The notes under the pieces are model-generated. The model saw only the letters and a list, made by a program, of their open reading frames with translations. It did not search any database and was not told where the DNA came from. A stretch of DNA of 10,363 nucleotides from a virus (Duplodnaviria; Heunggongvirae; Uroviricota; Caudoviricetes): positions 1-10,363 of IMG/VR virus record IMGVR_UViG_2654587726_000019; one strand, written 5' to 3'. The first letter of the stretch is position 1; each line of letters starts with the position of its first letter. A program made the position numbers and the translations under genes. This document shows, one piece after another, positions 1 through 10,363 of the stretch.

Positions 1-49
1 CCCCCGCCGTTAGCAGGCTGGCGGCGGCAATCATTACCAGGAGCGTGTG

Positions 50-268
50 ATGGGCGGCTGGATTGAACATATCACCACCGAGGGCGAGCGCTGGGATAAT
101 CTGGCGTTCCTCTATTACGGCGATCCAATGGGCTATGAGCGCATCATTGTCGCTAACCCCCATATTGCGATCACGCCGACACTGGCCTCCGGGCTGCGGT
201 TGCGTATTCCGGTGATCGGCCCGATGCAGGTGCATAACGTTGATGAGGTGCCGCCGTGGCTCAGGTAA
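50..268 (+). CDS. Phage tail protein X-like (LysM-like small tail protein)
   Basis: ATG at 50 preceded by AGGAG (39-43); an in-frame GTG at 47 is the alternative start. The translation has a LysM-like pattern (W-D-x-LA-x-x-YYG ... ANP ... G-x-x-L-x-IP) as in P2 gpX-family proteins, and the size (~72 aa) fits. The stop overlaps the next gene. Confidence 0.6.
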   Translation: MGGWIEHITTEGERWDNLAFLYYGDPMGYERIIVANPHIAITPTLASGLRLRIPVIGPMQVHNVDEVPPWLR

Positions 269-1356
269 ATGCCGTTATCACCCCCGTTTTCACCCTGTTT
301 TACGGGCAGAAAGATATCACTCACGATATTGCTCCTTTTGTCCTGAGCGTGACGTATACCGACAGTCTCAAGAGCGAATCGGATGAAATCGACGTGCAGG
401 TGGAAGACACCGCCGGGCGCTGGCGCGAGGCGTGGTATCCGGGCAAAGGCGATATGCTGATGCTGAAGTTGGGCTATCAGGGCGAAGCGTTGCTGGACTG
501 TGGAGCGTTCTCCATCGATGAGATTGAGCTGGGCGCACCGCCGGATACGGTATCCATTCGCGGCGTGGCGACGTCGGTCAACAGCGCTCTGCGTACCGCC
601 TCCAGCGAGGGCTACGAAGAGACGACGCTGGATGCGATTGCCAGCCGTATCGCGCAGAAGCATGGTCTGAAGCTGGTCGGTCAGATAGAGCCGATTACCA
701 TTGACCGGGTGACGCAATACGCGGAAACCGACGTCGGTTTTCTGAAGCGGCTGGCGGGTGAGTATGGTTATGCGCTGAAAGTCACCACTGGCGAGCTGGT
801 GTTTTCCCATCTGGCTACACTGCGAAGTAACGCGCCGGTGACGACGCTGACGCCGCAGGATGTAGCGCGCTGGTCGCTGCGCGATACCATCAACCGCATC
901 TATAAGGATGCAAAGGTGGCGCATCAGAAGAGTAAAGAGAAGACGCTGGTGACGTACCACGCCGACGGCCCGCCGACCACGGAGACGCGTGGTAAATCGA
1001 CCAGCGCCGATACGCTCAAGGTCAATGCACGGGCGGCGGATCAGGGGACGGCGCAGGTGAAAGCCGAGGCGGCGCTGGATGACCATAACGAGTATCAGCA
1101 GACCGGTTCGCTCTCGATGATGGGCAACACGCAGCTTATCGCCGGGAACAAAATCACTCTCGACGGGTTCGGCGTGCTCTCCGGGGAGTGGCTGATCACC
1201 AGCGCCCGTCACTCGTTTGACCGTTCATCGGGCTACAGCACCGAAATTGAGGTCGGACGTGGCCCGAAAACGGCCTCCGGCGGCGGGAAGAAGAAAAAAC
1301 CGGATACGCTGACCGTCTATCACCCGGACGGCCCACCCACCCAGGAGAAAAAATGA
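256..1356 (+). CDS. Baseplate hub / phage late control gene D-like tail protein
   Basis: 366-aa ORF with a GTG start overlapping the end of the X-like gene and a GAGG upstream. The N-terminal region has a G-x-QGE-x-L-x-D-x-G-x-F-x-x-DEIE-x-x-GPPD pattern recalled from the P2 gpD / Mu gp44 family. Position immediately before the V/W/J/I genes fits. Confidence 0.65.
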   Translation: MAQVNAVITPVFTLFYGQKDITHDIAPFVLSVTYTDSLKSESDEIDVQVEDTAGRWREAWYPGKGDMLMLKLGYQGEALLDCGAFSIDEIELGAPPDTVSIRGVATSVNSALRTASSEGYEETTLDAIASRIAQKHGLKLVGQIEPITIDRVTQYAETDVGFLKRLAGEYGYALKVTTGELVFSHLATLRSNAPVTTLTPQDVARWSLRDTINRIYKDAKVAHQKSKEKTLVTYHADGPPTTETRGKSTSADTLKVNARAADQGTAQVKAEAALDDHNEYQQTGSLSMMGNTQLIAGNKITLDGFGVLSGEWLITSARHSFDRSSGYSTEIEVGRGPKTASGGGKKKKPDTLTVYHPDGPPTQEKK

Positions 1357-1844
1357 AAGGCGTCACCCGACAGACCGGGATTATCAGCGATATCGACGAG
1401 GTGAAGGTGTGCGTGCGCGTCACCCTGCCGGAATGCGACGATCTGCGCACCAACTGGCTCCCCATCCTGCAACGCAATACGCAGGACAATAAGGACTACT
1501 GGCTGCCGGATATCGGCGAGCAGGTGGAGGTGCTGCTGGATGATAACGGCGAGGATGGCGTGGTGCTGGGGGCGGTCTATTCGTCGGTGGATACGCCACC
1601 GGTGACGGACAAAGACAAGCGCTATGTGCGGTTCTCCGATAAGGCCGCGATTGAGTACGACCGCAAACAGCACCAGTTGACCATTAATGGCGGCATTGAA
1701 AAAATCGTGATTGAGGTGAAAACCAGCGTCAGCATCACCGCGCCGCAGGTGGTCATCACTGGTAATGTCCGCGTCACCGGCAATATCAGTGCGTCAGGCT
1801 CTATCATCGACGCTGGCGGCAATACCAACCATCACTCTCATTAA
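1353..1844 (+). CDS. Baseplate assembly protein V-like (central spike)
   Basis: 163-aa ORF; ATG overlaps the upstream TGA (ATGA coupling) with AGGAG 8 nt upstream. Size, position before a gpW-like gene and a Gly/Val-rich C-terminal beta-type segment fit the gpV / Mu gp45 family. Confidence 0.65.
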   Translation: MKGVTRQTGIISDIDEVKVCVRVTLPECDDLRTNWLPILQRNTQDNKDYWLPDIGEQVEVLLDDNGEDGVVLGAVYSSVDTPPVTDKDKRYVRFSDKAAIEYDRKQHQLTINGGIEKIVIEVKTSVSITAPQVVITGNVRVTGNISASGSIIDAGGNTNHHSH

Positions 1845-1872
1845 AGCGGTTTAATATCGCCACTTTAGCAAC

Positions 1873-1890
1873 GGGGGCGACAATGCCCCC
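1873..1890 (+). promoter_or_regulatory. Small hairpin GGGGGC-gacaat-GCCCCC in the V-W intergenic region, ending at the W start codon
   Basis: 6-bp perfect inverted repeat read from the sequence. It overlaps the expected ribosome-binding region of the gpW-like gene, which has no strong SD. Confidence 0.3.
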
Positions 1891-2250
1891 ATGAGCACAC
1901 AATCCCATCCTTTAAATCTGCACTGGCAACCGGCCCTGAAACGCGACGGCGAGTACGTCTGTGGGCTGGAGGATATCAGCCAGGCCGTTCACATCATTCT
2001 GCGCACGCCGCGCGGTAGCGATCCCCATCGCCCCTTTTTCGGTAGCGACCTGTGGCGCTATATCGACTGGCCTGCTGAACGGGCGATTCCCCATGTGGTG
2101 CGTGAGTCGGTGGAGGCTATCCGCCACTGGGAGCCGCGCTGCAAATTTCTCAAAGTGGTGCCGGAACTGGACGGCGAACATCTCACGCTGCGCATCCAGT
2201 GGCGCGCCGCCGATGGCGTTATTAATGAAACGGAGGTGGTATGGCGTTAG
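1891..2250 (+). CDS. Baseplate wedge protein, GPW/gp25 family
   Basis: 119-aa ORF containing LEDISQ-x-x-x-I-ILRTP-x-GS ... FGS-x-L ... WEPR, matching the conserved pattern of P2 gpW / T4 gp25-like proteins. Its stop overlaps the next gene's start. Confidence 0.7.
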   Translation: MSTQSHPLNLHWQPALKRDGEYVCGLEDISQAVHIILRTPRGSDPHRPFFGSDLWRYIDWPAERAIPHVVRESVEAIRHWEPRCKFLKVVPELDGEHLTLRIQWRAADGVINETEVVWR

Positions 2251-3356
2251 CTGAACCCGATTTTATCGACCGCGACCCGGCGCAAATCACCAGTGAGATG
2301 ATTGCGCAGTATGAAGCGGTGAGCGGTAAAACGCTCTATCCGGCGCAGGCGGAGCGGCTGCTGATTGATGTTATTGCCTATCGTGAAAATCTGCTGCGCA
2401 TCGGCATTCAGGAGGCGGCAAAGCAGAATCTGGTGGCGTTTTCCCGTGCGCCAATGCTCGATTACCTCGGCGAACTGGTGGGCGTGAAGCGCCTGCCTGC
2501 GCAGGCGGCACAGACCACGTTGCGGTTTTCCGTTGCCAGCGCGCAAAAGCGCAATGTGCTGATCCCGGAGGGCACCCGCGCCAGCGCGGCCAACAGCGTG
2601 ATGTTTGCCACCGATGACGATGTGCTGCTGCCAGCCGGAAGTCTGAGCGTCGATGTCACGGCCACATGTACCACCGCTGGCGTTGTGGGTAATGGCTGGC
2701 AACCGGCGCAGATTAGCGCACTGGTGGACAGCGTGGCAGGTGTCGATTTGCAGGTGACGAACATTACCGCGTCCGGCGGCGGCTGCGCCGATGAAAGCGA
2801 CGACGCCCTGCGCGAGCGTATCCGGCTGGCTCCTGAAAGTTTCAGTAACGCGGGGAGTTATGGCGCATACCGCTTTCATGCGCTGTCAGTCAGCCAGGCG
2901 ATTATCGACGTGGCCATCCTCGGCCCGGATGAGGGGCTGGATGAAGGTTGCGTGGAGATTTACCCGCTGACGCAGGACGGTCTGCCGGGCGATGAGTTGC
3001 TGGCACAGGTGGTGCAGGATGTCAGTAAAGAGAAGAAACGCCCGTTGACCGATAAGGTAAGCGCGAAGAAACCACTGCGCGTGGCATATCAGATTAACGC
3101 GCAACTCACGCTATTCACTAAAGCCGATCAGGACTCGACGCTGCTGGCCGCGCGTAAGGCCATCGCCGACTGGACGGCAGAGCGCGAGCGCCATCTGGGG
3201 CGGGATATCGTCCCCAATCAAATCATCAAAGTGTTGCAGGTGGCGGGTGTCTATGACGTGGCGCTGGAAACACCTGCCAAACGAGTGCTCGCGGCACATG
3301 AGTGGGCGCAGTGTACCTCGATTGATGTGACCATCGCCGGGGTGAGCGATGGATAA
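2241..3356 (+). CDS. Baseplate J-like protein
   Basis: 371-aa ORF; ATG overlaps the end of the W-like gene with GGAGG upstream. Size and position (after W, before I-like and fiber) match the gpJ / Mu gp47 family. Assigned by family-level recall, not by alignment. Confidence 0.65.
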   Translation: MALAEPDFIDRDPAQITSEMIAQYEAVSGKTLYPAQAERLLIDVIAYRENLLRIGIQEAAKQNLVAFSRAPMLDYLGELVGVKRLPAQAAQTTLRFSVASAQKRNVLIPEGTRASAANSVMFATDDDVLLPAGSLSVDVTATCTTAGVVGNGWQPAQISALVDSVAGVDLQVTNITASGGGCADESDDALRERIRLAPESFSNAGSYGAYRFHALSVSQAIIDVAILGPDEGLDEGCVEIYPLTQDGLPGDELLAQVVQDVSKEKKRPLTDKVSAKKPLRVAYQINAQLTLFTKADQDSTLLAARKAIADWTAERERHLGRDIVPNQIIKVLQVAGVYDVALETPAKRVLAAHEWAQCTSIDVTIAGVSDG

Positions 3357-4068
3357 GTTACCGCTTCAACCGCCGCTCGCCGGGGATGAACGCTTTACCC
3401 GGCTGGCAAATCTTGCCGCTGAACGCTTCGCACAACTCGATCTGACCGCGCTTCTGATTTACCTGGTGGATCTGGTGGATGCCACGGCGCTGCCGTCGCT
3501 GGCAGAACAGTTCCACGTTCAGGGGCTGGAAGGCTGGCTGTTTGCCCGCGATGAGCGACAAAAGCGCGATCTGATCAAGCAGGCCATTGAGCTGCACCGC
3601 TATCGCGGTACGCCGTGGGCAGTGCGTCAGGTACTGAAGATTCTGGCGTTGGACGGCGATATCAGCGAGTGGTTTGAGTATGGCGGTAAGCCGTACTTTT
3701 TCCGCATGGATGTCACGCTTGAGACGCGCGGGCTGACTGAGGATGAATTTAACGCGCTGATTGTGCTGATCCATGAGTACAAGAACGTCCGCTCAAAGCT
3801 GGAGATGCTGACTATCTGGCTGATTAACCAGAGCCAGATCCCGGTTATCGCCAGTGCTGTTCAGGGCGGCGAGATTGCTACCGTTCTGCCGTGGATTGCG
3901 GAGAGCGTGAGTCAGTCGTCTGCGGTTTATCTGGCGACGGAGTGTTTGAGTGCAGAGGTGGTAACGGTGTTGCCTCCGCTGCATGGCAATGTTGAGCAGA
4001 CCAGCGTTATGAGTGTTGGAGCGGGCTGCTGGAGTATTGAGTTTGTCACTGTTTACCCGGAGGAGTAA
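3349..4068 (+). CDS. Phage tail protein I-like (baseplate wedge, fiber attachment)
   Basis: 239-aa ORF whose start overlaps the J-like stop (ATGGATAA). It sits directly upstream of the tail fiber gene, as gpI / Mu gp48 does. Acidic, Leu-rich N-terminus is typical of the family. Confidence 0.6.
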   Translation: MDKLPLQPPLAGDERFTRLANLAAERFAQLDLTALLIYLVDLVDATALPSLAEQFHVQGLEGWLFARDERQKRDLIKQAIELHRYRGTPWAVRQVLKILALDGDISEWFEYGGKPYFFRMDVTLETRGLTEDEFNALIVLIHEYKNVRSKLEMLTIWLINQSQIPVIASAVQGGEIATVLPWIAESVSQSSAVYLATECLSAEVVTVLPPLHGNVEQTSVMSVGAGCWSIEFVTVYPEE

Positions 4069-5768
4069 TGGCGAGTGAATTTTTTACCATTTTAACCGCC
4101 GCTGGCCGCGCGAAGATTGCTGCGGCGCTGGCGGAACAAAAGCAGATAGTGCTGCAAACAATGGTCGTTGGCGACGGCGGCGGGCAGTATGCCGAACCGA
4201 AAGAGAGCCAGACAAAGGTGGTGCGTGAAGTCTGGCGCGGGTCACTGAATACGCTGAAAATCGCCCCGGAAAACCCGGCGTGGGTGATTGCCGAGGCGGT
4301 ACTGCCGGAAGCGAAAGGCGGCTGGTATATCCGCGAGGTGGGATCGCTGGATATGGACGGCGTGCTGATTGCCATCGGCAAGTTCCCGGAAACCTATAAG
4401 CCGAAGCTGCCTGCCGGGGCCAGTAAGCAAATTGTGATCCGCGCTGTGATGGAAGTGACGAACGCGGCGGCGGTAACGCTGATGGTTGATCCGTCGCTGG
4501 TGATGGCAACGGTAGATTATGTGGACTCCAGTATTGAAGAGCACGAAAGATCACATAATCACCCGGACGCAACGCTGACTCAGAAAGGCTTTACGCAGCT
4601 TAACAGCTCCACCAATAGCACGCTGGAAACGCAGGCAGCAACGCCGAAGGCGGTGAAGGCGGCGATGGATAAGGCGAATGAGGCACTGGAAAAAGCTGGG
4701 GCTGATAAAGCGCATAAACATCCGTGGGCCGATATTACCGGGGTGCCGGATGGGACAACGGCGCAGAAAGGGGTTGTGAAGCTTAATAGCTCAACGAACA
4801 GTACCAGTACGACGGAGGCTGCGACACCGAGTGCGGTTAAGGCGGCATATGACCTGGCGAATGGTAAGGCGGCGGGGAGCCATAAACATGCCTGGGGCGA
4901 TATTACCGGGGTACCGGATGGCACTACGGCGCAAAAAGGGATCGTAAAGCTCAACAGCGCGACGAACAGCACCAGTACTACCGAAGCGGCCACGCCCGGC
5001 GCAGTGAAGGCGGCGTATGACCTGGCGAACGGGAAAGCGGCTTCCAGCCATACTCACGCATGGAGTCAGATTACCGGCGTACCGGATGCAACTACAGCGC
5101 AAAAAGGGGTTGTGAAGCTTAATAGCGCGACGAACAGTACCAGTACGACTGAAGCCGCAACGCCGAGCGCGGTTAAGGCGGCGTATGACAAGGCGAATAC
5201 AGCAATCTCCAGTTTTGCTCTTTTCACGTCGAATGGGACGTTTACGGTGCCAGTCGGGGTAACGAAAGTGATGGTGGAAATGATTGGAGGTGGAGGTGGT
5301 GGCGGCGGCGGTGGTGTGGGTGGTGGTGAGCGAATTGGTTATCCGACAGCAGGTAAACCATCACTTTTTGTTCAAGGGATTGTTGCTGTGAACTCTGGAC
5401 AAAATGTAACCGTCACAGTCGGCGGAGGCGGTGTTGGGGGATCATCAAAAGTAGATACTGGTGGTGGTTCGATGACCGGGAGTAATGGGTACGCCGGAGG
5501 AAACTCAATTTTCTTAACGCTCACTTCTGTTGGTGGTAGCGGCGGCGGCGGTGCATTGCCAGATTCTGGTCCTGGCAACGCATTAAATGAGCCAGGTTCT
5601 GATTCAACGCATGGCTATGGCGGGGGGACTAAGTATAACTCGCAGAAAAATGCCGTAGGTTATGGTTCGAGTGGTGCGGCTGGTACCTCTAAAGGCGTCA
5701 GAACTGTTGAAGGGGACTCTACAGCAGGTGGCAATGGTGCTTCAGGTTTTGTCAGAATATGGTGGTAA
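4068..5768 (+). CDS. Tail fiber protein (P2 gpH / Mu S-like N-terminal domain, tandem fiber repeats, Gly-rich C-terminal tip)
   Basis: 566-aa ORF with GGAGG upstream; ATG overlaps the preceding TAA by 1 nt. N-terminal ~160 aa match the conserved gpH N-terminal pattern (VGDGGG, EVWR, SYKP-like, VMAT-x-DYVD-x-x-I-x-EHE-x-S). This is followed by four tandem ~56-aa repeats and a glycine-rich C-terminus. Confidence 0.85.
   Translation: MASEFFTILTAAGRAKIAAALAEQKQIVLQTMVVGDGGGQYAEPKESQTKVVREVWRGSLNTLKIAPENPAWVIAEAVLPEAKGGWYIREVGSLDMDGVLIAIGKFPETYKPKLPAGASKQIVIRAVMEVTNAAAVTLMVDPSLVMATVDYVDSSIEEHERSHNHPDATLTQKGFTQLNSSTNSTLETQAATPKAVKAAMDKANEALEKAGADKAHKHPWADITGVPDGTTAQKGVVKLNSSTNSTSTTEAATPSAVKAAYDLANGKAAGSHKHAWGDITGVPDGTTAQKGIVKLNSATNSTSTTEAATPGAVKAAYDLANGKAASSHTHAWSQITGVPDATTAQKGVVKLNSATNSTSTTEAATPSAVKAAYDKANTAISSFALFTSNGTFTVPVGVTKVMVEMIGGGGGGGGGGVGGGERIGYPTAGKPSLFVQGIVAVNSGQNVTVTVGGGGVGGSSKVDTGGGSMTGSNGYAGGNSIFLTLTSVGGSGGGGALPDSGPGNALNEPGSDSTHGYGGGTKYNSQKNAVGYGSSGAAGTSKGVRTVEGDSTAGGNGASGFVRIWW
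4554..5205 (+). repeat. Four tandem in-frame repeats (periods 159, 168, 168 bp) encoding phage tail-fiber repeat units
   Basis: Repeat units start at 4554, 4713, 4881 and 5049. Each encodes H-x-H-x-W-x-x-ITGVPD-x-TTAQKG-x-VKLNS-x-TNST ... EAATP-x-AVKAAYD. The last three copies are nearly identical at the protein level. Confidence 0.85.
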
Positions 5769-5771
5769 CAC

Positions 5772-6374
5772 ATGAAATATGCGTATTTTGAACCCTCATC
5801 AATGAAGGTTTTAGACTGGCTGGATACCGAACAATTATCCTTTGTTTTGCCTGACAGTGTTGTTTCGGTAACTGATGAGCAATGGTGTTATCGTGATCGT
5901 GAATGCTGGGTCAATATTTCAACCACAGAAATCATCACAACACCTCCACCCGGTGATTTTTATCGGCTTGATGGTGATAAGTGGGTGTATGACGCAACCA
6001 GCTATACTGCTGCGCTAGACGGTGCTAAGTCACTAGTTGTTAAGGCAATCAAGGCGCTACGCGATGAAGTCACTGCCGATTATATCATTATCGGCGACTA
6101 TCACTTTCACAGCGATGCCAGCAGTCGTATCCAGCAAATGTCACTCACCAGGATGGGGCAAACGAAGCAAATCCCCAAAGGCTTAATGTGGCAGACCAAA
6201 AACCTCGGACTTCTCGAGCTAACCAATGAAATCGCGGCGCAGTTTGAGTCCATTACAATGGATCACGATATGCGCCTCTTTGCCAATGCCCAGCGACATA
6301 TTGCCGCCGTTGAGGCGCTGGAAGATATCCTGGCAGTTCAGGAGTATGACTACTCTACGGGGTGGCAACCATGA
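5772..6374 (+). CDS. Putative tail-fiber-associated protein (assembly chaperone candidate; family not recognised)
   Basis: 200-aa ORF starting 4 nt after the fiber stop. It shares the fiber tip's low GC content. Its position is that of a Tfa/gpG-type chaperone, but the sequence does not match the classical Tfa pattern as I recall it. Confidence 0.4.
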   Translation: MKYAYFEPSSMKVLDWLDTEQLSFVLPDSVVSVTDEQWCYRDRECWVNISTTEIITTPPPGDFYRLDGDKWVYDATSYTAALDGAKSLVVKAIKALRDEVTADYIIIGDYHFHSDASSRIQQMSLTRMGQTKQIPKGLMWQTKNLGLLELTNEIAAQFESITMDHDMRLFANAQRHIAAVEALEDILAVQEYDYSTGWQP

Positions 6375-6823
6375 GGCCGGTGTATCTGGCGTTCTATAAA
6401 GGGCGAGCCGATCATCATGGGTTCGCACGTCTTTCCGACTGGCTGACGCGGCTGGTGACGCGGGGTGAGTATTCTCACTGCGAGCTGGCTGTTGACCAGG
6501 GTAACGGCGAGTTTCTTTGTTATTCGTCGTCGGTGCGTGACAAGGGGGTGCGCTGTAAGCAAATGCCGCTGCCACTCGATAAATGGGATCTTATCGCGCT
6601 AAATGCGCTACCAACCAGTGTGGAGCAGTTCTTCCGTCGAAACGACGCCATGAAATATGACTGGCTGGGGGCTGTGGGATTCGTTGTTTTTAATCGTGGA
6701 CGGGAGAACAAATATTTCTGTAGCGAGTTTTGCGCAGATTTTCTTGGACTGGTCGATAGCTGGCGTTATTCACCCAATATGCTCCACGCGCTGGCCAGCA
6801 GTATTCAGACTATGAAGTTATAA
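6371..6823 (+). CDS. Hypothetical Cys/His-rich protein (moron); function unknown
   Basis: 150-aa ORF; ATG at 6371 overlaps the upstream TGA (ATGA), with an alternative GTG at 6362. GC-rich, with a coding-like codon pattern. Contains GEYSHCEL and YFCSEFCADF motifs. No confident family assignment. Confidence 0.5.
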   Translation: MRPVYLAFYKGRADHHGFARLSDWLTRLVTRGEYSHCELAVDQGNGEFLCYSSSVRDKGVRCKQMPLPLDKWDLIALNALPTSVEQFFRRNDAMKYDWLGAVGFVVFNRGRENKYFCSEFCADFLGLVDSWRYSPNMLHALASSIQTMKL

Positions 6824-6836
6824 GGGAAACAGCGAC

Positions 6837-6862
6837 CAGAGTCAGGCGGTCACCTGACTCTG
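6837..6862 (+). promoter_or_regulatory. Perfect 10-bp-stem hairpin (CAGAGTCAGG-cggtca-CCTGACTCTG) just downstream of the moron ORF
   Basis: The inverted repeat is read directly from the sequence. There is no U-tract after it, so it is not a canonical intrinsic terminator; it could be an RNA stability or attenuation element. Confidence 0.4.
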
Positions 6863-6907
6863 ACCAGCTAACCCGCAGGAAGTGTCTGCGAGCCGCCCAG
6901 GGCTGCC

Positions 6908-6923
6908 ACTGATGGCCATCAGT
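6908..6923. promoter_or_regulatory. Perfect 16-bp palindrome ACTGATGGCCATCAGT upstream of the methylase gene (candidate operator)
   Basis: Exact dyad symmetry read from the sequence, ~47 bp upstream of the methylase ATG. Any regulatory role is inferred. Confidence 0.35.
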
Positions 6924-6969
6924 CCAATAAGCCTAACAGTTTTTCACATACTGAAAAAGGTTTGCAGAA

Positions 6970-7743
6970 ATGAAAACATTACCCATTATTCCGTGGCCCG
7001 GCGGTAAGCGTCGTCTGGCCAAAAAGTTATTACCGTTATTTCCTGAGCACCAGTGTTATGTAGAGCCATTCTGCGGCGGTGCAGCCTTGTATTTCATGAA
7101 GGAGCCGGTTGAAGCTGAAGTCCTGAACGATATCAACGGCGAACTGGTGAATCTGTACCGTGTGGTTAAAAATCATCTTGAAGAGTTTGTGCGCCAGTTC
7201 AAGTGGGCGTTGAGCAGCAGGCAGATTTTTGAATGGTCGAAAATGACCATCCCGGAGACGCTAACTGATATTCAGCGTGCAGCGCGGTTTTATTATCTCC
7301 AGAAGCAATCATTCGGAGGGAAAGTGGAATCACAGACGTATGGAACGGCGACCACTTCTGCACCACGGCTTAATCTGCTAAGGCTGGAAGAGGAGTTGAG
7401 CGCCGCCCATTTGCGGCTATCACGCACGTTTGTAGAACATTTACCGTGGCGTACCTGCATTGAGAAGTATGATCGCCCGCACACACTGTTCTATTGCGAT
7501 CCCCCGTATTGGGGAACGGAGGGCTACGGTGTTGAATTTGGACTGGAGCAGTACACCCAACTTGCAGAGTTGGCCAGAACGATAAAAGGCAGGATGTTGA
7601 TCAGTGTGAACGATATCCCGGAGATGCGTGAAACCTTTGCGGACTTGTCGATTGATACGGTAGATATTCGCTATACGTTGAGCGGTGGGCCTAATGCTAA
7701 TCGCTCGAAAGTCAGCCGTGAGCTGGTCATTCGTAACTGGTAA
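6970..7743 (+). CDS. Dam-family (D12 class) N6-adenine DNA methyltransferase, orphan
   Basis: 257-aa ORF with the N-terminal pattern WPGGK ... EPFCGGAA (AdoMet-binding FxGxG-type motif), DINGELVNLY, and the catalytic DPPY motif (FYCDPPYW). This is the architecture of E. coli Dam / T4 Dam-like methylases. No endonuclease gene is recognisable beside it. Confidence 0.8.
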   Translation: MKTLPIIPWPGGKRRLAKKLLPLFPEHQCYVEPFCGGAALYFMKEPVEAEVLNDINGELVNLYRVVKNHLEEFVRQFKWALSSRQIFEWSKMTIPETLTDIQRAARFYYLQKQSFGGKVESQTYGTATTSAPRLNLLRLEEELSAAHLRLSRTFVEHLPWRTCIEKYDRPHTLFYCDPPYWGTEGYGVEFGLEQYTQLAELARTIKGRMLISVNDIPEMRETFADLSIDTVDIRYTLSGGPNANRSKVSRELVIRNW

Positions 7744-7850
7744 AGTGGAATTCTTTTGCAATAGGTGAAAAAAGTCGCAGCGCGATTTATCTCGCAGATT
7801 CAGGCGAATTTATCGCGCGCGGCTTTAGCACCGGAGCGACCGGTTATTAC

Positions 7851-8780
7851 GTGCTAATTCTGTCGCTGGTATCCACCATTCCGTACAGTAAAAAGCTACC
7901 AACATCGAAATTAATGATGCCCCTGGGATTTGCCACCAACCACCCGCTTCTTCCTATCAATCTCGCGCTTCTCTTTGGCGTTACGGCGACCGTACTCGAA
8001 ACCGCGGGGTTTCATCAGGAGATTTCGATGGGGCGCTTTGCGCTGGTGAATCTCATCATGTCAGCGGCTTTCCTCGCATGGAGTCTTATTGCCTACCGTT
8101 TTCTTCCGGATCATCCCATTGCGGATGCTTCCGAGGATGCGCTGGCGGCACGCGAGGAAACGTTTAACGCCCTTCCTGCCTGGAAAGAATATTGCACTAT
8201 TGCCGCATTCGCTGTCAGCGTTATCGGCATGATGCTAATGAACATTCTGGGAAATATCGCCTTCGTTATTCCGGGTCTTGCGGGTGCGTTTGTTCTGATG
8301 ATCGATGTACTGGACTTCAAAGAAGTTCGCGATCATATGGGGGCTCCGGTCATTTTAATGATGGCGGGGGTGATCGGTGTAGCTGATGCACTGGCGGGCA
8401 CCGGCTTTACGGCGATGGTTGGCGATGCCGTTGCAGGTGTGCTCGGTTCTGGCGTCTCACCGTTTGTATTTATTGTCGCCTTTGCTTTGCTTACCAGTAC
8501 CTGCGCCACCTTCACGGGTTCGAATATGGGGTCAGTATATATTTTTGCCCCCATCGCCATTGCCGCCTGTACTAGCCTTGGGCTTAACCCGACCGCTGCC
8601 GCGATTGCGGTGGTGATTTCTGGCTGGAATGGCGGCTATATGCCTATTGACGGAATGCCAGCCATGATCCTCGGAATGGGGAAATACAAACTTCCCGAAT
8701 TCTGGGTGTTCTCTGTACCAATGTATCTCATCCGCATTCTGGCGCTTTGTGCAGGCGCTGTTTTTATCTTCCCAATGTAA
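7851..8780 (+). CDS. Integral membrane permease (ion-transporter-superfamily-like), possibly a 5'-truncated gene
   Basis: Strongly hydrophobic ORF with multiple predicted membrane-spanning segments and Gly/Ala-rich re-entrant-loop-like motifs (TFTGSNMG, NGGYMPIDG). The track start is a GTG at 7851 with a poor RBS. An in-frame ATG at 8028 has a strong AGGAG 6 nt upstream. The frame stays open upstream to 7737 with no good start codon. Confidence 0.5.
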   Translation: MLILSLVSTIPYSKKLPTSKLMMPLGFATNHPLLPINLALLFGVTATVLETAGFHQEISMGRFALVNLIMSAAFLAWSLIAYRFLPDHPIADASEDALAAREETFNALPAWKEYCTIAAFAVSVIGMMLMNILGNIAFVIPGLAGAFVLMIDVLDFKEVRDHMGAPVILMMAGVIGVADALAGTGFTAMVGDAVAGVLGSGVSPFVFIVAFALLTSTCATFTGSNMGSVYIFAPIAIAACTSLGLNPTAAAIAVVISGWNGGYMPIDGMPAMILGMGKYKLPEFWVFSVPMYLIRILALCAGAVFIFPM

Positions 8781-8787
8781 TCTCAGA

Positions 8788-8825
8788 CAAAAAAAGCGGC
8801 AGAGAAGATCCCTGCCGCTTTTTAT
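8788..8825. terminator. Bidirectional rho-independent terminator
   Basis: GC-rich stem GCGGCAG / CTGCCGC (8796-8802 and 8812-8818) with a 9-nt loop, flanked by an A-run (8789-8795) and a T-run (8819-8825). It lies between the convergent permease and nagE genes. Confidence 0.65.
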
Positions 8826-8830
8826 TGTTG

Positions 8831-8854
8831 GATGCGACGCTGCCGCGTCGCATC
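8831..8854. repeat. Palindromic hairpin GATGCGACGC-tgcc-GCGTCGCATC (REP-like element or secondary nagE terminator stem)
   Basis: Perfect 10-bp inverted repeat immediately 3' of the nagE stop. It resembles enterobacterial REP palindromes in having a GATGCG core, but no adjacent U-tract. Confidence 0.4.
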
Positions 8855-8868
8855 AGACATAAAGCAGA

Positions 8869-10363
8869 TTACTTTTTGATTTCATACAGCGGTGTTTGAC
8901 CCGCCACAACATGGCCCTGAGCTTTAATGATAAGGCCGCTGAAATCGTCGATATTGCTGCAAACCACCGGGCTAATCATCGAACGGGCGTTAGCGTTCAG
9001 GTAATCCAGATCCATTTCCAGAATCGGTTGCCCTGCGCTTACCTGCGCGCCCTCTTCTACCAGACGTTTAAAGCCTTTACCTTCCAGCGCTACGGTGTCG
9101 ATACCCATATGGACGACGATCTCCTCGCCTTTTTCGGTTTCCAGACAGAATGCGTGGTTGGTGTTGAAGATTTTCACGATTGTTCCTGCGGCTGGTGATA
9201 CGACGATTTTATCTGTCGGTTTCACCGCCACACCGTCACCCACCGCTTTGCTGGCGAATGCTTCGTCAGGAACCTGATCCAGTGCCACAACATCCCCGGT
9301 AATCGGGGATACCAGCTCCGCGATAGATACCGCGTTTGGTACAGCCTGCGGTTTTGCTACAGGAGCGGCAGTTGCCGGAGTTGCTTCAGCTGACGCAGCG
9401 GCTACCGGACCACCGGCAACGACTTTCTTCATCGCATCGCCGATGGATTCTGCTTTCGCGCCAACAATCACCTGAATAGTCTGTTTGTTCAGTTTCACTA
9501 CCCCAGAAGCACCCAGACGTTTACACATCGCATCGTTGACGCGAGCTGAGTCAACCACGGTAAGGCGCAGACGAGTAATACAGGCATCAATGGCTTTCAG
9601 GTTGTCAGTACCGCCAACCGCAGCAATATAGTTGGTTGCCAGTTGATTGAGACCTTCTTCAGTATTGCTGTTAGCCTCTTCAGTAACGATCTCGTCTTCT
9701 TTATCTTCACGACCCGGCGTTTTCAGGTTGAACATGCGGATAACCAAACTGAACACCACGAAGTAGATAGCGAAGAAGACAACCCCCATCACCAGCAGCA
9801 TCCAGACGTTCTGGCTGGCGGCCGGCAGGTTATACATCAACGCGTAGTCGATAGCCCCCGCAGAGAAAGAGAAGCCGGCATGGATACCCAGCAACGTTGC
9901 CACAAACAGGCTGATACCGGTCAGCAGTGCGTGCAGGAGGTACAGCAGCGGTGCAAGGAACATGAACAGGAATTCCAGCGGCTCAGTCACACCGGTCAGG
10001 AACGCAGTAACAGCAACAGAAAGCAGCATCCCGCCAACCATCGGACGACGCTCTTTCGGTGCTGCGAAGTACATCGCCAGCGCCGCACCTGGCAGACCGA
10101 ACATCATAATCGGGAAGAAGCCGGACATGAACATCCCCGCGGTGCCGTCACCGGCATAGAAGCGGTTGATATCACCGTGGAAAACCGTTCCCGCCGCGTT
10201 GGTGAATTCACCAATCTGGAACCAGGCGATGGTGTTCAGCACCTGATGCAGACCGGTTGGGATCAGCAGACGGTTGATGAAACCAAAGATACCGGAACCC
10301 AGCGCGCCCGCAGAAACGATCCACTCGCCGCCTGCATGGATAGCGTGCTGTACCGGCGGCCAG
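8869..10363 (-). CDS. nagE: PTS N-acetylglucosamine-specific EIICBA component (3' portion; the 5' end lies beyond the window)
   Basis: The minus-strand frame is open to the window edge. The translation shows the end of a IIC membrane domain, a IIB domain with the phospho-cysteine motif (DACITRLR), an Ala/Pro-rich linker, and a C-terminal Crr-like IIA-Glc domain (VHMGIDTVALEGKGFKRLVEEG), ending YEIKK. A fused CBA order with a Crr-like IIA domain is characteristic of NagE. Confidence 0.85.
   Translation of the reverse strand, partial: WPPVQHAIHAGGEWIVSAGALGSGIFGFINRLLIPTGLHQVLNTIAWFQIGEFTNAAGTVFHGDINRFYAGDGTAGMFMSGFFPIMMFGLPGAALAMYFAAPKERRPMVGGMLLSVAVTAFLTGVTEPLEFLFMFLAPLLYLLHALLTGISLFVATLLGIHAGFSFSAGAIDYALMYNLPAASQNVWMLLVMGVVFFAIYFVVFSLVIRMFNLKTPGREDKEDEIVTEEANSNTEEGLNQLATNYIAAVGGTDNLKAIDACITRLRLTVVDSARVNDAMCKRLGASGVVKLNKQTIQVIVGAKAESIGDAMKKVVAGGPVAAASAEATPATAAPVAKPQAVPNAVSIAELVSPITGDVVALDQVPDEAFASKAVGDGVAVKPTDKIVVSPAAGTIVKIFNTNHAFCLETEKGEEIVVHMGIDTVALEGKGFKRLVEEGAQVSAGQPILEMDLDYLNANARSMISPVVCSNIDDFSGLIIKAQGHVVAGQTPLYEIKK

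Follow-up and report, generated by a model that had tools for sequence, protein, structure and literature searches.

The stretch of DNA analysed here, called the window below, comprises the 10,363 nucleotides (nt) of the virus record IMGVR_UViG_2654587726_000019. It carries a run of tail genes on the + strand, then a Dam-type methylase gene and, from position 7828, host DNA (Table 1). We were concerned with the segment in which the tail fibre gene ends and the gene of its predicted chaperone begins, a candidate host-range cassette whose base composition departs sharply from that of the surrounding genes.

Table 1. Features of the window. GC3, GC content at third codon positions; aa, amino acids; AF2, AlphaFold2; L060, a Salmonella prophage.
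Feature	Position	Strand	Remarks
gpD-like hub	256-1356	+	
gpV spike	1353-1844	+	
gpW	1891-2250	+	
gpJ	2241-3356	+	
gpI	3349-4068	+	
Tail fibre	4068-5768	+	566 aa
Conserved left arm: start of the tip domain (FTSNGTFTVPVGVTKVMVEMI) and G10-V-G3 run (5286-5327)	5226-5327	+	entry motif in 20/20 non-redundant loci
Low-GC3 trough, compositionally distinct cassette	5277-6041	+	GC3 0.348, 253 codons; maximum-likelihood breakpoints, shuffles, Fisher tests, sliding GC3
Hypervariable core of the fibre tip	5328-5723	+	variable loops between conserved glycine-rich motifs
Conserved C-terminal fibre strand (…GGNGASGFVRIWW)	5724-5765	+	common ending in 20 glycine-class loci; similarity to L060 resumes at 5724
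DUF4376 tail-fibre chaperone (predicted)	5772-6374	+	200 aa; starts 3 nt after the fibre stop; PHROG tail families
Variable N-terminal chaperone domain	5772-6041	+	beta-rich residues 1-73 and first half of the linker helix; GC3 0.36; AF2 model
Conserved C-terminal DUF4376 domain, right-hand homology arm	6042-6371	+	GC3 0.60; 88% nt identity to the closest relative
orf153	6362-6823	+	conserved, 153 aa; PHROG 1128, 3.6e-58; 13-nt overlap with the chaperone gene
Dam-type adenine methylase	6970-7743	+	

The fibre consists of an N-terminal collar (PF12571, residues 1-149, 2.4e-55), a shaft of four Phage_fiber_2 repeats (PF03406 four times, 4.8e-68) and a C-terminal glycine-rich domain, the putative receptor-binding domain, which matches PF21722 (Gly_rich_2) at residues 387-557 with 29.1 bits against a cut-off of 24.3. 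The shaft (4635-5216) is made of 168-nt tandem repeats, which were found at 4713-5216. The protein encoded just downstream matches PF14301 (DUF4376) at residues 86-194 (38.8 bits, cut-off 25), and membership of this family predicts a role in folding the fibre; its AF2 model has two domains. Sequence searches of the PDB with either the tip or the chaperone returned nothing meaningful, and a Foldseek comparison of the chaperone model with the PDB gave no match. No characterised phage was found to carry this tip, and no relevant literature was found for PF21722.

A preliminary description of this DNA had reported an abrupt drop in GC content over positions 5330-6374 on the basis of four hand-sampled 60-nt stretches. 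All four values were reproduced (0.600, 0.450, 0.417 and 0.650 GC), and a windowed analysis confirmed the break: total GC is about 0.59 upstream, reaches its minimum of 0.425 at 5701-5900 and stays at about 0.50-0.52 thereafter. The signal is much sharper in GC3: the baseplate genes have values of 0.66-0.75, and the fibre has 0.63 up to residue 380 and 0.34 over nt 5331-5768; in the chaperone gene the first 90 codons have about 0.35-0.36 and the last 110 codons 0.60. Maximum-likelihood segmentation of GC3 with two breakpoints over 2434 codons placed these at nt 5277 and 6042, with GC3 values of 0.686, 0.348 and 0.575 in the three segments. The log-likelihood gain was 55.8, compared with a maximum of 12.0 among 200 codon shuffles, and Fisher tests gave p values of 3e-24 for the trough against the upstream and 3e-9 against the downstream segment. 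The compositional break is real, sharp and far beyond chance. The notion that the trough is spurious, arising from amino-acid or glycine-codon composition or by chance in small samples, can be given next to no weight. The tip is indeed 30% glycine and only four 60-mers had been sampled originally, but the trough keeps a GC3 of 0.366 when glycine codons are excluded, a result which together with the shuffles refutes the glycine-codon artefact; moreover, GC3 is just as low (0.36) in the chaperone N-domain, which is poor in glycine, and no shuffle approached the observed likelihood gain.

The left edge of the trough was found where it had been claimed, at the run of GGN codons (5286-5327), with the GC3 break at 5277. 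The right edge had been put at 6374, the end of the chaperone gene. It lies instead inside this gene, at about 6042, some 330 nt earlier, because the C-terminal DUF4376 domain is conserved backbone; the breakpoint at 6042 coincides with the start of this domain and with the point where similarity to relatives resumes. Nor does GC return to about 62% beyond the trough, as had been stated: the value at 6401-6460 is a local maximum, orf153 as a whole has a total GC of 0.52 (GC3 0.58) and later sequence about 0.51, the remaining prophage end and the host DNA having 0.50-0.53.

Comparisons with single relatives, each locus being given an L number, showed where similarity is lost and regained. The closest complete-genome relative, L001 (Escherichia coli OkiPb01694), is 91.6% identical over 1-5021 and 88% identical over 6059-6973, with no nucleotide similarity at about 5315-5945, save for out-of-register matches of the shaft repeats between these flanks; the fibre is not of one origin along its length. 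An apparent dip in identity at 4800-5100 is due to the number of shaft repeats in the protein, four in the window and three in L001. The E. coli prophage L003 has a backbone that is mostly 81-95% identical (about 93%), yet its identity is 99-100% over 4950-6300. The Salmonella prophage L060 has an 86.8% identical backbone, 90% identity over 5201-5300 and about 45-50% over 5301-5700. Two further prophages, L007 and L008, whose backbone is unrelated to that of the window, occupy the same chromosomal site with flanks 95-96% identical and carry different tip folds: in one a His-x-His needle goes with a Caudo_TAP-like N-domain of the chaperone, in the other a glycine-rich tip goes with a short N-domain; their right joint lies exactly 107 codons ahead of the chaperone stop. 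In four independent comparisons (L001, L006, L007 and L008) similarity to the right-hand arm of the window starts at 6045-6070. Identity that is discordant with the flanks in L001, L003, L060 and the L007/L008 pair bears out the proposal that the low-GC stretch is an exchangeable cassette, presumably a receptor-binding one.

A survey based on this chaperone family retrieved 51 loci (47 on viral contigs and 4 in genomes), 44 of them non-redundant, and the fibre and chaperone were extracted from each; a scan of the GTDB species representatives gave 4 loci only. As in the window, the chaperone gene lies directly downstream of the fibre gene in 46 analysed loci. Across the 44 non-redundant loci the type of tip and the type of chaperone N-terminus are perfectly coupled: glycine-rich tips ending in G-F-V-K/R-I-x-W are paired with chaperones having M-x-K-Y-A-Y...VLDW, needle tips ending in KNIAFNYIVRLA with chaperones having M-x-T-F-x-F-S, and two rarer pairs are likewise coupled. 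At least four unrelated N-terminal types are joined to one conserved C-domain, and all invariant columns of the chaperone alignment start at K86.

Twenty non-redundant loci have a glycine-rich tip (the glycine class). Their alleles are all homologous and share one common scaffold: in an alignment of the tips (A2), 26 of the 36 invariant columns are glycine, with variable stretches in between, and the fibre ends in G-x-G-[FIY]-[VI]-[KR]-[IL]-x-W in every one of the 20. Mean pairwise identity in this class is 0.75 for the collar and 0.77 for the conserved entry motif versus 0.40 for the tip downstream of it; it is 0.47 for the chaperone N-domain and 0.80 for the C-domain. Mantel tests linked the tip to the chaperone N-domain (r = 0.69, p = 2e-4) and only weakly to the collar (r = 0.25) or the C-domain (0.23), the collar and the C-domain being themselves correlated (0.58). 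The exact matches of 14 nt or more that the other loci share with the window are concentrated at 5150-5330 and 6050-6330, with almost none between. Those of the left arm stop at about 5314, the glycine run and the NGTFTVPxGV strand before it being the conserved patch where the similarity of alleles ends, and the C-domain shares exact matches of 20-50 nt with 13 of the 20 loci.

The preliminary description had the fibre tip and its partner gene moving as one unit. This holds for the N-terminal 90 or so residues of the chaperone (5772-6041), which co-vary with the tip and are about 44% identical to those of L001, and not for the C-domain (6042-6371), which is backbone at 88% nucleotide identity and 94% identical to that of L001. 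The tip and the N-domain can also part company. In the pairs L015/L026 and L016/L023 the tip DNA is 100% identical and the identity of the chaperone N-domains is 82% and 71%, and the converse pattern was found for L015/L016 and L021/L022. Since the tip core and the chaperone N-domain are also exchanged separately, there are three joints and not two.

Divergence in place would dispense with exchange altogether, diversifying selection on the receptor-binding loops acting together with a general mutational AT bias. It would be in keeping with the homology of the glycine-class alleles on one scaffold, with the family-wide occurrence of the trough and with the GC3 of the tip columns, 0.286 in variable and 0.337 in conserved scaffold columns (p = 0.011). 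We nevertheless regard it as very unlikely: cassettes that are 99-100% identical sit in backbones differing by 5-19%, tips that are 100% identical stand beside chaperone N-domains that are 71-82% identical, two unrelated tip folds occupy one site in prophages that are 95-96% identical, the conserved columns are low in GC3 as well, and the step in composition is abrupt, taking about 15 codons. The discordant pairs argue against divergence in place as the sole cause; it may contribute. The GC3 of the tip columns fits an origin of the segment as a whole, perhaps with a small input from fast local evolution.

The trough is not confined to the window. In nearly all enterobacterial loci GC3 is 0.14-0.40 over the final 180 codons of the fibre, 0.20-0.40 in the chaperone N-domain and 0.52-0.74 in the C-domain, and this is so with a collar GC3 of 0.39-0.45 or of 0.65-0.75 alike. 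When the 20 glycine-class loci are aligned on the entry motif, mean GC3, at first 0.6-0.7, drops to 0.4 in the motif itself and to about 0.3 past the glycine run. The trough is absent from the enterobacterial loci L006, L012, L039 and L052 and from the distant high-GC and low-GC loci L055-L058. These exceptions, outgroups included, count against the idea that low GC is itself selected in the cassette, be it for slow translation during chaperone-assisted trimer folding or for AT-rich silencing in the lysogen; recurrence of the trough over many alleles and two unrelated tip folds in enterobacterial loci would be expected if it were, yet we find this explanation scarcely credible.

The low GC had been taken for the trace of a lower-GC donor. 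A single recent import from such a donor, specific to this phage and not yet ameliorated, would place the trough (GC3 0.35) below both the backbone (0.69) and the E. coli genes of the window (0.55-0.59), as observed, and would lower the conserved scaffold columns (0.34) together with the rest of the segment. It is an unlikely account all the same. L001, L060, L008 and nearly all other enterobacterial loci have different alleles and the same trough in the same place, so that the trough predates this phage and the low GC cannot be taken as evidence of a single recent import. The segment was searched separately, as had been proposed, and 5316-6058 matched nothing at the DNA level among 5,426 E. 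coli genomes and 50,697 phage records. A distant blastn search with 5022-6058 against the E. coli genomes and phages matched the shaft repeat (5022-5315) only, and megablast of the prophage part found nothing among the 50,697 phage records. The best protein relative of the tip among 1.8 billion protein representatives was 46% identical: a word-indexed search gave 3 matches and was swamped by poly-Gly words, an exhaustive search gave only distant relatives of at most 46-50%, and a profile search recovered the family. Amelioration towards the host was ruled out as well, host GC3 being above that of the trough. Low GC is a property of the cassette pool and not the mark of one import.

By profile match (PF21722) and by fold match, the tip is a TNF-like plus glycine-rich domain of the kind found in gp24 of the cyanophage Pam3. 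In Pam3 gp24 (PDB 7YPX) the TNF-like domain extends into a glycine-rich domain with a conserved stem of glycine motifs, and the hypervariable distal loops have been proposed to bind the receptor; in the solved complex the variable N-domain of the chaperone gp25 holds the TNF-like/glycine stem side and its conserved C-domain trimerises (PMC9608196). The window has the same glycine motifs and variable loops, and a chaperone just downstream with a variable N-domain and a conserved C-domain. The contact seen in Pam3 agrees with the co-variation of tip and chaperone N-domain in the present loci, and its position on the stem side explains how tips with different distal loops share one N-domain. Unlike the Pam3 protein with its minimal helical stalk, the tip of the window is fused to a long fibre of P2/Mu type with a collar and four shaft repeats; hosts and phage lineages are unrelated, and the fibre-chaperone complex is one solved for Pam3. 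On this fold the G10-V-G3 run is the first conserved glycine-rich structural motif and not a flexible spacer. Thus the run had rightly been associated with the left break, and the linker role suggested for it did not stand. By analogy the core of the tip may hold the receptor-binding surface and the N-domain of the chaperone may bind the fibre.

A similar logic is seen in the T-even gp38 adhesins (T2, T6, S16), in which hypervariable segments lie between glycine-rich motifs and exchanges that swap specificity occur within or near these conserved motifs (PMC3157838), the logic proposed for the left arm of the window. Here too a conserved glycine-rich core would display hypervariable receptor-binding segments; unlike the C-terminus of the window fibre, gp38 is a separate monomeric adhesin on the tip of the fibre.

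We consider it probable that 5277-6041 is a host-range cassette of a Mu-like prophage, made of the fibre tip and the N-domain of its chaperone and exchanged between conserved arms. This reading starts from what was observed directly: the break in composition, the mosaic pattern of identity, the co-variation and the fold match. The cassette would encode the distal, receptor-binding part of the fibre, a TNF-like plus glycine-rich domain with the glycine motifs as stem and the variable loops as binding surface, and also the N-terminal domain by which the folding chaperone of the tip binds the fibre. On the left it would be bracketed by the last shaft repeat and the motif NGTFTVPxGV...GGGGGGGGGG, on the right by the chaperone's DUF4376 domain and then orf153. 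Where related phages or prophages share a cell, homologous recombination in these arms might swap the whole cassette; the right arm offers exact matches of 20-50 nt and the left arm shorter ones. The short conserved end of the fibre gene would allow the tip core or the chaperone N-domain to be swapped alone. The cassettes would form a pool shared among enterobacterial prophages with its own low GC3 (about 0.2-0.4) irrespective of the GC of the carrier, and this would be why the segment stands out against a backbone of 0.69.

Several points weigh against this reading. That the tip binds a receptor, that the chaperone binds by its N-domain and that exchange proceeds by recombination in the arms are steps that we infer. 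The coupling of tip and chaperone N-domain is at the level of type and not strict, separate exchange of both being possible, and fast local evolution may add to the trough, as the difference between variable and conserved columns indicates. Of the marks of a mosaic module, a sharp-edged discontinuity in composition and a similarity discordant with the flanks are present, and no donor lineage was found in the E. coli genomes, phage records and protein representatives searched. Identical copies of the cassette occur in many draft E. coli assemblies; near-identical copies were found only in the same phage lineage (L003-L005, L013 and L014), and a second, clearly unrelated backbone with this exact cassette was not found.

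Two other sources of variation were ruled out within the window. An invertible switch of the kind of the Mu G segment is excluded because there are no inverted repeats of at least 16 nt in 3900-7850 and the window contains neither an invertase gene nor another copy of DUF4376 or the tip, the genes downstream being orf153 and the Dam methylase. A diversity-generating retroelement is excluded by the absence of a template repeat, the direct repeats of the tip being limited to short GGN runs, and of a reverse transcriptase among the open reading frames of the window.

Haggård-Ljungquist and colleagues (1992, cited in PMC13100340) reportedly described the fibre C-terminus and its assembly protein as mosaic and exchanged among P2, Mu, P1, lambda and T4. 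The arm recombination proposed here fits, by analogy, this classical fibre/Tfa mosaicism of P2, Mu, P1 and lambda. As in those systems, the fibre C-terminus and its assembly protein appear to be exchanged horizontally in otherwise unrelated phages. TfaMu (PDB 5YVQ) is modular, with a variable fibre-binding N-domain and a conserved C-domain (PMC9608196), and the chaperone of the window resembles TfaMu and Pam3 gp25 in having a variable N-domain and a conserved C-domain (pairwise identity 0.47 vs 0.80). It differs from the classical Caudo_TAP family in that its C-domain is DUF4376; the tip is a glycine-rich fold instead of the His-x-His needle of the fibre/Tfa systems, and the inversion switch of Mu is absent. 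Closer in this respect are the chaperones of the Alteromonas phages V22 and A5, which belong to the same Pfam family and lie in the same place downstream of the fibre gene. In this family a function as fibre chaperone has been shown experimentally only for gp27 of V22 (PMC7289586), and the fibre-chaperone pair is shared between unrelated phages by recombination (PMC7289586, PMC10579305). V22 and A5 fibres have knob and head domains and no glycine-rich tip, and the domain-level chimerism of the chaperone and the composition trough that we found in the window are not described in the text consulted.

Some observations concern the fibre gene itself. The two GGN runs of the tip (5295-5328 and 5532-5553) are 91% identical over 22 nt, forming internal direct repeats between glycine-rich motifs which could support intragenic recombination or slippage. 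At about 9333 in L003 (window 5101) one A is missing from an A5 run, so that its otherwise near-identical fibre gene has a frameshift and escaped gene calling; either a sequencing error, a pseudogene or slippage would account for this. Database proteins identical to the tip are mostly 'partial' fragments of 136-150 aa that lie at the ends of contigs and start just past the glycine run. The breaks of draft assemblies at about 5286-5330 suggest that the repeats or the motif upstream are present more than once per genome.

The wider context points to the right end of a Mu-like transposable prophage inserted in an SLC13 permease gene of E. coli. This reading relies on the order of the genes, on the presence of com and mom in the relatives and on their varied insertion sites. 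The relatives have the same gene order, with the tape measure, gpU and gpX genes ahead and com and mom at the end, and their insertion sites are unrelated (near grxA, the eut operon and a lambdoid prophage, each different), as expected for a transposable Mu-like phage. In the window the phage ends with ...TTATCGCGCGCGGCTTTA and the junction with the host is at about 7827/7828. The sequence from 7828 onward is E. coli chromosome (99.8% identity) and carries nagE and the SLC13 permease gene, which lacks its first 330 nt or so at the junction and is therefore disrupted by the insertion. The backbone of the prophage (1-5276) has a GC3 of 0.69, well above the 0.55-0.59 of the flanking E. coli genes (7828-10363); the phage lineage itself is compositionally unmatched to E. 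coli.

An orf153 homologue is found at the same position in L001, L003, L006, L007, L008 and L060; in all relatives examined, whether Mu-like or P2-like, it comes after a DUF4376 chaperone. No Pfam family covers orf153, a PDB sequence search gave nothing meaningful, and its one match, PHROG 1128, has a doubtful label; it may be another gene for fibre assembly or an accessory gene. The Dam-type methylase gene occupies the place of com and mom in the closest relatives, L001, L003 and L060, and similarity to these three ends at 6969-6973. The P2-like prophage L006 has the same trio of chaperone, orf153 and dam, and the dam region appears to be another exchanged module, at the right end of the prophage. 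Patches of gpD, gpV and gpJ (901-1050, 1201-1350, 1651-1800 and 2551-2850) are about 80-87% identical to L001 and L003 in a background of 93-97%, and the block 3300-6300 is 97-100% identical to L003. To judge from these alignments the whole tail module looks finely mosaic, beyond the fibre tip alone.

Two unrelated tip folds and dozens of alleles hold a GC3 of about 0.2-0.4, with arms at about 0.6 and backbones at 0.4-0.75. It is possible, and we suggest it only tentatively, that low GC is a lasting hallmark of the pool of cassettes which enterobacterial prophages share, more than a leftover of donors. If so, cassettes would move between phages faster than they drift to the composition of their carriers; alternatively, mutation bias in a fast-evolving segment, or selection, would keep the cassettes AT-rich. 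Mosaicism of this kind is well known in phages, and the general picture of it is unchanged. What is added is the right boundary at a domain border of the chaperone, the nested structure with three joints, the assignment to Pam3 gp24/gp25 and the family-wide trough. Exact boundaries of a host-range module, with joints at about 5280-5330, 5724-5771 and 6040-6070, become available for uncharacterised prophages of E. coli and Salmonella; the chaperone is to be cut at its domain boundary and not at the gene boundary, which is useful for engineering the specificity of fibres or tailocins. The widespread enterobacterial 'glycine-rich domain' fibre tips are now linked to a solved structure, Pam3 gp24-gp25, and the GC3 trough provides a practical marker for such cassettes.

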